Assembly (NCBI RefSeq): GCF_055900595.2
Contig: NZ_CM148325.1
Length of the DNA stretch: 64,000 nucleotides
Reading direction: 5' to 3' (one strand)
In this document: positions 21,533-48,990 of the stretch, in pieces
How positions within the stretch are numbered: position 1 is the first letter of the stretch
Layout: the number at the start of each line of letters is the position of its first letter
Notes under the pieces: generated by a model
Database searches by the model: none
What the model was told of the DNA's origin: nothing
The model's input: the letters and a program-made list of their open reading frames with translations, nothing else
Position numbers and translations under genes: made by a program

Positions 21533-21562
21533 ATAAAAAAGGCGCAGAATCCTGCGCCTTTT
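21533..21562 (-). terminator. intrinsic terminator in the 59-nt secA-mutT gap
   Basis: On the minus strand: GGCGCAG - loop - CTGCGCC followed by TTTTTTATAGG (plus-strand A6 at 21535-21540). Confidence 0.65.
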
Positions 21563-42930: not shown

Positions 42931-42948
42931 GCCAGCCTCACCCCTTAT

Positions 42949-43021
42949 TCCCACTTTGCCCCACAATTTCCCACTGAAAGGAGTTTACGGAGCGGAGGAA
43001 AAGCTTGTCAAGCCAGTCACA
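42949..43021 (-). promoter_or_regulatory. Pmra promoter with three MraZ-box direct repeats (TGGGN at 10-bp spacing)
   Basis: Minus strand reads TTGACA - 18 nt - TAAACT, then GTGGGaaattGTGGGgcaaaGTGGGaataa (plus-strand CCAC at 42951, 42961, 42971) just upstream of mraZ. Confidence 0.7.
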
Positions 43022-43530
43022 AGGCATACCGAGGTAAAAAACCCGATGTTTACGGCTAATATCAGCGTTGTTTATTTTACGTCCAACGTGCGAAGCAAAT
43101 TAACGTTATGAATAGCTGTAAGAAAAAATCCCTCATGGTCATCACCGTTTTAAAATGACTAACTATTTTCCACAGCAAATATAAAGTGTCAGTTTGCGAC
43201 GCGAGCGGCATTTTAGGACATATCTTCCCCAGTTAACAGTCCCTGTTGCGTCTGTGTGGCGCTTGATGCCAGCAGGTTTGCGCAAAAGCAAAGAAAAGTG
43301 TTTGTTAAATCGGCAATTCATCTCTGCATGTAACAAAATAATGCAAAAACGCTCTGTCAATATTGCTTAATTATTGTGAATTTCAGCAGGTGAGTTAATT
43401 AATGGGCGGGTTTAAAAGCATTTATCAATAATAGCCAGGAATAGTCTTATTTACTTTAAGGATATTGATGTCCATTCCCGTACTCGACGCGCCAATGAGA
43501 AATTCACTGGCGCGTATTTTTGTTCGCGGC

Positions 43531-44535
43531 TTAGTTACGGCTGAGCACGCCGCGGCGATAGAGATTACGTTTAATGCGCGTTAACCCAGGTTTTGGCTTA
43601 CGCGGTTCGTCCAGGCTTGCCAGGACAATTTCCAGCACACGCTCTGCGACATCGCGGTGACGTTGAGCCACTGCCAGCACCGGGCACTGTAAGAAGTCGA
43701 GCAGTTCGTTATCGCCAAAGGTGGCAATTGCCAGGTCAGAAGGCAGTTTGCCATCGCGACGCAGCGTGACATCCATCACCCCTTGCAACAACGCAAACGA
43801 CGTTGTGAACAGCGCCTGCGGCATCGGATGCGTTTCCAGCCATTTTTCGAATAACTGGGCAGCCGCCTCCCGCTCATAACTGTTGGCATAAAGGAAATGC
43901 ACTTCGCGCGGATCATCTTTCCAGGCAGTACGGAAACCTTGCTCACGCAAGAAGCTCACAGAAAGCTCCGGCAGCGCGCCAAGATAAAGCACCGTCTCGG
44001 CGGGAAACTTACGTAACTCTTCCGCCAGCATTTCGGCATCATCCTGATCGGCACCAACCACGCTGGTGAAGTGTTCACGATCGAGGGCGCGGTCCAGCGC
44101 GACAATCGGGAACGGGTCGTTAGCCCAGCGTTGATAAAAAGGATGCTCTGGTGGCAACGACGTCGAAACAATAATGGCATCAACCTGACGCTGTAGAAGA
44201 TGCTCAATACAACGCATTTCGTTGTCTGGCTGATCTTCTGAGCAAGCAATCAGCAGTTGATAACCCCGTTGCCGCGCCTGACGTTCAAGATAATTAGCGA
44301 TGCGGGTATAGCTGGTGTTCTCCAGATCGGGGATCACAAGACCAATAGAACGTGTGCGTCCAGCACGAAGCCCAGCTGCCACGGCGTTCGGGTGGTAATT
44401 GTGCTCACGCACCACAGCCATGACTTTTTCAACGGTTTTGTCGCTCACACGGTATTGCTTCGCTTTGCCGTTAATAACATAGCTTGCAGTGGTCCGCGAC
44501 ACTCCCGCTAGCCGAGCGATTTCATCCAGTTTCAC
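43531..44535 (-). CDS. cra: catabolite repressor/activator Cra (FruR), LacI family
   Basis: ORF track 334 aa; N-terminal [26 protein letters not shown]. Confidence 0.94.
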
Positions 44536-48954: not shown

Positions 48955-48990
48955 AACAAAAAACCCGCGCCATTGCGCGGGTTTTTTTAT
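48955..48990 (+). terminator. leu attenuator (intrinsic terminator)
   Basis: A6-CCCGCGCC-loop-GCGCGGG-T7 at 48958-48988, between leuL and leuA. Confidence 0.88.

Follow-up and report, generated by a model that had tools for sequence, protein, structure and literature searches.

The stem-loop that follows the cra gene in this E. coli-like DNA is, in our judgement, probably the hairpin in which the cra transcript ends, and the Escherichia counterpart of one found past the cra stop codon across Enterobacteriaceae. By its likeness to known transcript ends, it is probably of the U-less kind found where transcription stops by Rho: cra transcription would run on and stop deeper in the untranslated spacer, Rho being the most likely agent, and the hairpin would block 3'-to-5' exonucleases, setting and protecting the stable end of the cra mRNA. 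The element is unannotated yet ordinary, of a known kind, and carries little weight for biology at large. It does teach a caution: a terminator-like hairpin facing an empty strand, accompanied by an SD-ATG, can be the 3' hairpin of a neighboring gene together with a chance reading frame.

The cra-mraZ junction

The window (the whole stretch of DNA analysed, 64,000 nucleotides of contig NZ_CM148325.1) is oriented opposite to K-12. The two genes lie on its minus strand, and their spacer of ~600 bp, bounded downstream by mraZ, spans window positions 42931-43486, i.e. K-12 89,079-89,633. RefSeq annotates no gene in this interval, either for K-12 or for 6 other fetched E. coli records, in agreement with an earlier note on this DNA, which knew of none here. 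The features needed below are:

43531..44535, minus strand: cra (catabolite repressor/activator), from the open reading frame and the RefSeq annotation of matching E. coli records
43531-43533, minus strand: cra stop codon
42472..42930, minus strand: mraZ, an open reading frame on the same strand and next downstream of cra
43487..43515: stem-loop, with arms 43487-43494 ACGCGCCA and 43508-43515 TGGCGCGT and a 13-nt loop
43516..43524, plus strand: T-run ATTTTTGTT, directly 3' of the stem
43458..43470, plus strand: AAGGA-N5-ATG (AAGGA 43458-43462, ATG 43468-43470), judged a chance match
43468..43584, plus strand: 38-codon frame overlapping the cra 3' end (43531), judged non-coding

The earlier note described these plus-strand elements correctly: the 8-bp stem, the 13-nt loop and a T-run on the plus strand only are all present, as is the AAGGA-N5-ATG that opens a 38-codon frame (43458-43584 with its AAGGA) running through the hairpin into cra antisense. 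It was also right that no U-tract follows the stem on the cra-sense strand, where the stem is followed by CGAGTACGGG in the window and by AGAGTACGGG in K-12.

The stem is perfect and G+C-rich, and begins 15 nt past the cra stop in cra sense. In the cra-sense (minus-strand) RNA, it lengthens to 12 bp, one of them a G.U pair, and the loop shrinks to 5 nt. Folding of 56 nt gave -20.4 kcal/mol for the plus strand (z = -2.7 relative to shuffles) and -23.1 kcal/mol for the cra-sense strand (z = -3.9). A relaxed terminator scan, which required a perfect 8-bp stem, a loop no longer than 14 nt and 5 or more T among the 8 bases that follow, returned 11 sites in the 64-kb window versus 0.63 in dinucleotide shuffles, and the hairpin is more than a chance occurrence; a scan with an 8-nt maximum loop missed it only because of that loop limit. 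Among the 11 sites, the one past cra is alone in having its T-run face a strand without a gene end. Origin of the element from a REP-like repeat family was ruled out, since it has a median of 1 place per genome.

The hairpin across Enterobacteriaceae

We compared 82 cra loci, namely 80 species representatives of Enterobacteriaceae, K-12 and the window. A stable hairpin is present in every one (82/82); it begins between -3 and 56 nt relative to the cra stop and has energies of -10.7 to -26.9 kcal/mol, while its sequence is not conserved between genera. In cra sense, about 36 of the loci look like terminators; another 33 carry no T-run on either flank of the hairpin, and 13 are terminator-like in antisense only, these last including all 6 Escherichia sequences. 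Textbook cra-sense terminators of the form AAAGGCAGC...GCTGCCTTTTTT occur in Kosakonia, Phytobacter, Atlantibacter and Franconibacter, and Cedecea and others have textbook terminators as well. The earlier note had allowed that the hairpin might simply be that of cra, and the comparison largely bears this out, with canonical cra terminators frequent in related genera. In Citrobacter koseri a REP-like sequence beginning GCCGGATAAGGCG occupies the hairpin position past the cra stop, with a second hairpin further on.

When the best hairpin was picked independently on each strand, the cra-sense strand was the more stable at 58 loci and the antisense strand at 12, with a mean difference of -2.9 kcal/mol, uncorrected for base composition. 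A stability bias toward cra sense, likewise uncorrected, is expected if selection acts on the cra mRNA.

Within the genus, 7 distinct Escherichia sequences share 9 core pairs, and E. whittamii shows a single compensatory pair change, CG to UA. One C to U change in E. albertii reads as a U.G wobble in the cra-sense RNA and as a C.A mismatch in the antisense RNA, and the energies there are -18.9 kcal/mol in cra sense versus -9.9 in antisense. The same comparison gives -20.0 versus -16.1 kcal/mol in the window (best hairpin per strand), -18.5 versus -19.5 in K-12 and -15.8 versus -15.5 for the Escherichia consensus; to judge from these values, the Escherichia data alone barely separate the two strands. 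Of the two things whose conservation the earlier note had proposed to check, the hairpin is conserved in position at all 82 loci and in its stem within Escherichia; the reading frame is not conserved.

A U-less hairpin at the cra 3' end

In E. coli, transcripts that depend on Rho for termination have stable stem-loops lacking a U-run at their 3' ends, and rut sites follow a short way downstream (Dar & Sorek 2018, PMC6061677). The cra hairpin resembles this class in that, in cra sense, it stands right past the stop codon with no U-run after it, and in that a mildly C-over-G stretch follows in a long untranslated spacer. Its cra-sense stability of -20 to -23 kcal/mol, its place 15 nt past the stop and the lack of a U-run are also what is looked for in a protective 3' stem-loop. 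It differs from the class in the A-run 5' of its stem, which is undescribed there, and both its Rho dependence and its place at the end of the cra mRNA are putative. The C/G ratio is 1.5-2.3 in 78-nt windows that start 26-78 nt past the hairpin in cra sense, a modest figure given as a raw ratio without background, and this stretch may harbor a possible rut site.

In the Tjaden 2023 compendium, cra and mraZ have a co-transcription probability of 0.12 and are called 'NO'; as the two genes are scored not co-transcribed, cra transcripts would end within the spacer. Taking this together with the missing U-run of the Escherichia hairpin, we infer a Rho-type stop in the spacer. No Rho-region entries were found at the K-12 coordinate prefixes searched (8903x-8908x), and the SMRT-Cappable-seq tables hold no entry for cra or mraZ. 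Sitting less easily with a cra 3'-end hairpin are the near-equal folding of the two strands within Escherichia, the absence of a cra-sense 3' end at the hairpin from curated, thresholded Term-seq lists, and the A-run, whose stronger conservation in the genus relative to its neighbors this reading leaves unexplained. The curated Term-seq set (Adams et al. 2021) has no 3' end on either strand from K-12 83,641 to 89,783. At the end of that interval, it has a reproducible 3' end that falls within the mraZ ORF, 149 nt in (K-12 89,783, cra-sense; ~42781 in the window).

Reversed polarity in Escherichia

Read in cra sense, the T-run at 43516-43524 is an A-run, AACAAAAAT, that precedes the stem; the plus-strand T-run is simply the complement of this A-run, and it gives the hairpin the look of an antisense terminator. 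The T-run, 4-5 nt long (A in cra sense), recurs in E. coli, E. albertii, E. whittamii and two unnamed Escherichia species. It is invariant at 4 positions, while the adjoining spacer up to the stop codon differs at most positions among E. coli, E. albertii and E. whittamii. The antisense-only arrangement holds in 6/6 Escherichia sequences compared and consistently in no other genus, and on this comparison the reversed polarity is Escherichia-specific and conserved within the genus.

Two histories for the A-run were considered and rejected. That it was ancestral to Escherichia and Salmonella, with the hairpin placed on different sides of it, is contradicted by local alignment, in which the Escherichia, Citrobacter and Salmonella stems are orthologous and the A-run is specific to Escherichia. 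A small inversion of a terminator module fails as well: when aligned, the Escherichia stem and the Citrobacter stem (GCGCCGG...CTGGCGC) point the same way, and so does the 3' arm context CCYTCTGGCGCG in the two genera. It may be that the A-run is left over from a two-faced terminator, or that it has been kept because the element truly stops antisense transcription just before cra.

Two-faced (bidirectional) intrinsic terminators are reportedly common in E. coli. Like them, the cra hairpin has an A-run 5' of its stem, and it could have lost a U-run on its sense side; unlike them, it has a single T-run face, the one without a gene. In the window, hairpins with T-runs on both strands were seen at four places (3177-3199, 4955-4974, 21540-21559 and 48961-48984), and the one at 4955-4974 sits between two co-directional minus-strand ORFs. 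An A-run thus lies 5' of a terminator stem at a junction without a convergent gene, and A-runs in this position are for that reason not diagnostic.

A possible reverse-facing terminator

Because the polarity is conserved across Escherichia, a plus-strand terminator that is competent in sequence does exist. The plus strand has both a G+C-rich stem and a U-run directly 3' of it, the stem measuring 8-10 bp, with energies that range from -16.1 to -22.9 kcal/mol among E. coli and its close relatives and -9.9 in E. albertii, while a U-run in cra sense is lacking in every Escherichia and present in ~36/82 of the related loci. Like a canonical intrinsic terminator, then, the plus strand has a G+C-rich stem followed by AUUUUUGUU, and many other genera are canonical at orthologous positions. 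The Escherichia element departs from the canonical form in that its U-run is on a strand without a known transcription unit, and in its long loop of 12-13 nt, unless the inner 3 bp form.

It is accordingly conceivable, and we raise it tentatively, that the element is a working reverse-facing intrinsic terminator, an insulator against weak or condition-specific antisense transcription from the AT-rich, conserved cra-mraZ spacer. Such a terminator would act 7 nt ahead of cra and may double as the cra 3' hairpin. The full set of plus-strand features (a G+C-rich stem of 8-10 bp at -16 to -23 kcal/mol, then 4-5 U) speaks for it, as do the unique facing of the T-run among the 11 scan sites, the layout shared by all 6 Escherichia compared and the invariance of the A/T run next to a diverging spacer. 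K-12 argues the other way, having no plus-strand 3' end, start site or assembled transcript here, with upstream plus-strand promoter-like sites that reach 8/12 at best; so do the C.A mismatch that weakens the antisense stem of E. albertii to -9.9 kcal/mol and the A-run at 4955-4974, where no gene converges.

A combined version seems to us rather unlikely: the cra terminator would have been remodelled in Escherichia into a reverse-facing intrinsic terminator, with cra itself Rho-ended and stem-capped, and one hairpin would do two strand-specific jobs. The conserved A-run would then let the stem stop antisense transcription from the spacer 7 nt before cra. Were the reverse terminator real, a single stem-loop would have different 3'-end functions on its two strands, and it would point to antisense transcription from an unusually conserved 600-bp spacer upstream of the dcw cell-division cluster.

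Transcript data and a hypothetical plus-strand RNA

The earlier note suggested from the polarity that a plus-strand transcript arising in the spacer ends at the hairpin. This found no support in Term-seq, in start sites, in the RNA-seq compendium or in promoter sequence. For this region, Kim et al. 2012 give just two start sites, 87,663 (cra) and 89,589 (mraZ), hence none in the spacer besides the mraZ promoter, and the Tjaden 2023 compendium of 3,376 RNA-seq samples has no unannotated transcript bounded within 890xx-895xx. Neither an RNA 3' end, such as a terminator leaves at the end of a transcription unit, nor a start site or transcript is seen on the plus strand here in three K-12 data sets. 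The Term-seq, start-site and RNA-seq sets are all thresholded, and weak antisense transcription may escape them. The best sigma-70-like sites upstream of the hairpin on the plus strand score only 8/12; one weak promoter-like site has its -10 at 43427, and a second, at 43334, falls in a conserved block.

That the hairpin terminates an unannotated plus-strand small RNA starting within the spacer is very improbable. These weak sites and the position of the orphan terminator-like site, adjoining the conserved block at 43438-43449, are what can be said for it; the marks by which a small RNA would be recognised, namely a promoter of its own, a distinct transcript and either conservation or kinship to a known family, were not found. 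The Rfam scan gave nothing significant, its best match being to Spot_42 at chance level (15.6 bits, E = 3.7, where the gathering score is 80). No such RNA is in the 3,376-sample compendium or the Term-seq lists, and in the other genera this conserved block lies right against cra-sense terminators, so that no space is left for the body of an RNA. In E. coli WEM25 (NZ_CP061530.1, locus 1-700), moreover, an IS1A element stands exactly at the spacer-side (plus-strand 5') base of the stem; the stem and T-run are intact there and the ATG region is displaced.

The small reading frame

The chance that the AAGGA-ATG frame encodes a small protein, 38 aa long (25 in most E. coli), is next to nil, and frame non-conservation effectively refutes the idea at the level of sequence. 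In its favor there is the AAGGA 5 nt ahead of the ATG in the window and most Escherichia, and the exact 38-aa sequence occurs in at least 1000 public contigs, where some submitters' pipelines automatically call it a 'hypothetical protein'. K-12 reads AAGCA at the SD position. The AAGGA-N4-8-ATG pattern occurs 14 times in the window versus 8.7 +/- 2.9 in shuffles, so that the SD-ATG is not above chance, and frames of at least 25 aa are common here (59 in 4 kb). Counted from an upstream TTG, the frame has 39 codons.

Its length appears confined to a rare allele (window 43452-43533), which has one loop base fewer and in which Cra ends in ...LSRN versus ...LSRS in K-12. The 79-nt allele of the window was matched at >=99% by only 18/5,423 complete E. 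coli genomes; 28/28 other records, sampled evenly down the remaining ranking, are one base longer, and all 6 fetched alleles have one more base in the loop; every allele fetched, K-12 included, has an extra C there. This extra base changes the frame after codon 13, giving a 25-codon ORF, MS[IS]PVL..SYG, from the same ATG. The 25 codons are kept in E. albertii with 9/25 residues changed, and in E. whittamii a stop follows codon 19. Variable sites fall at codon positions 1/2/3 in the numbers 8/11/13, without codon-position bias, and between K-12 and E. albertii 9 codons differ non-synonymously and 4 synonymously. In its distal half, the frame simply reads cra codons in antisense.

A conserved frame under purifying selection was thus not seen, nor was evidence of translation: the Ribo-RET/Api-Pmn sORF supplement (Stringer et al. 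2021), which bears on the ribosome profiling that the earlier note had proposed, lists nothing at the coordinates of the frame, and RefSeq has no gene there. The earlier note itself thought the frame probably coincidental, and the sequence comparison upholds this: AAGGA-ATG and the 38-codon frame are best taken as coincidental and not a gene.

Conserved blocks in the spacer

The length of the cra-mraZ spacer is nearly constant, at 557-655 bp in 76/77 species and 733 in one. Besides the mraZ promoter region, blocks conserved at >=90% across Enterobacteriaceae lie at ~43326-43345 (GCATGTAACAAAATAATGC), ~43176-43237 (a 60-nt block) and ~43089-43126. We found no annotation, Rfam match or literature for these blocks, and full-text searches on the cra-mraZ or fruR-yabB spacer returned nothing relevant.

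The block at 43438-43449, GGAATAGTCTTA (TAAGAnnATTCC in cra sense), is the first conserved block past the cra hairpin in every genus (loci L002-L081). For the plus strand of K-12, Cappable-seq lists no start site at 8911x-8913x. In Enterobacter and Citrobacter, this block is a near-perfect palindrome of ~20 bp (GATAATTCCTTAGGAATCAT, AGAATATTCTTTAGAATTATCT), and its sequence resembles either an operator bound by a dimeric regulator or a GAnnAT element of the -10 type.
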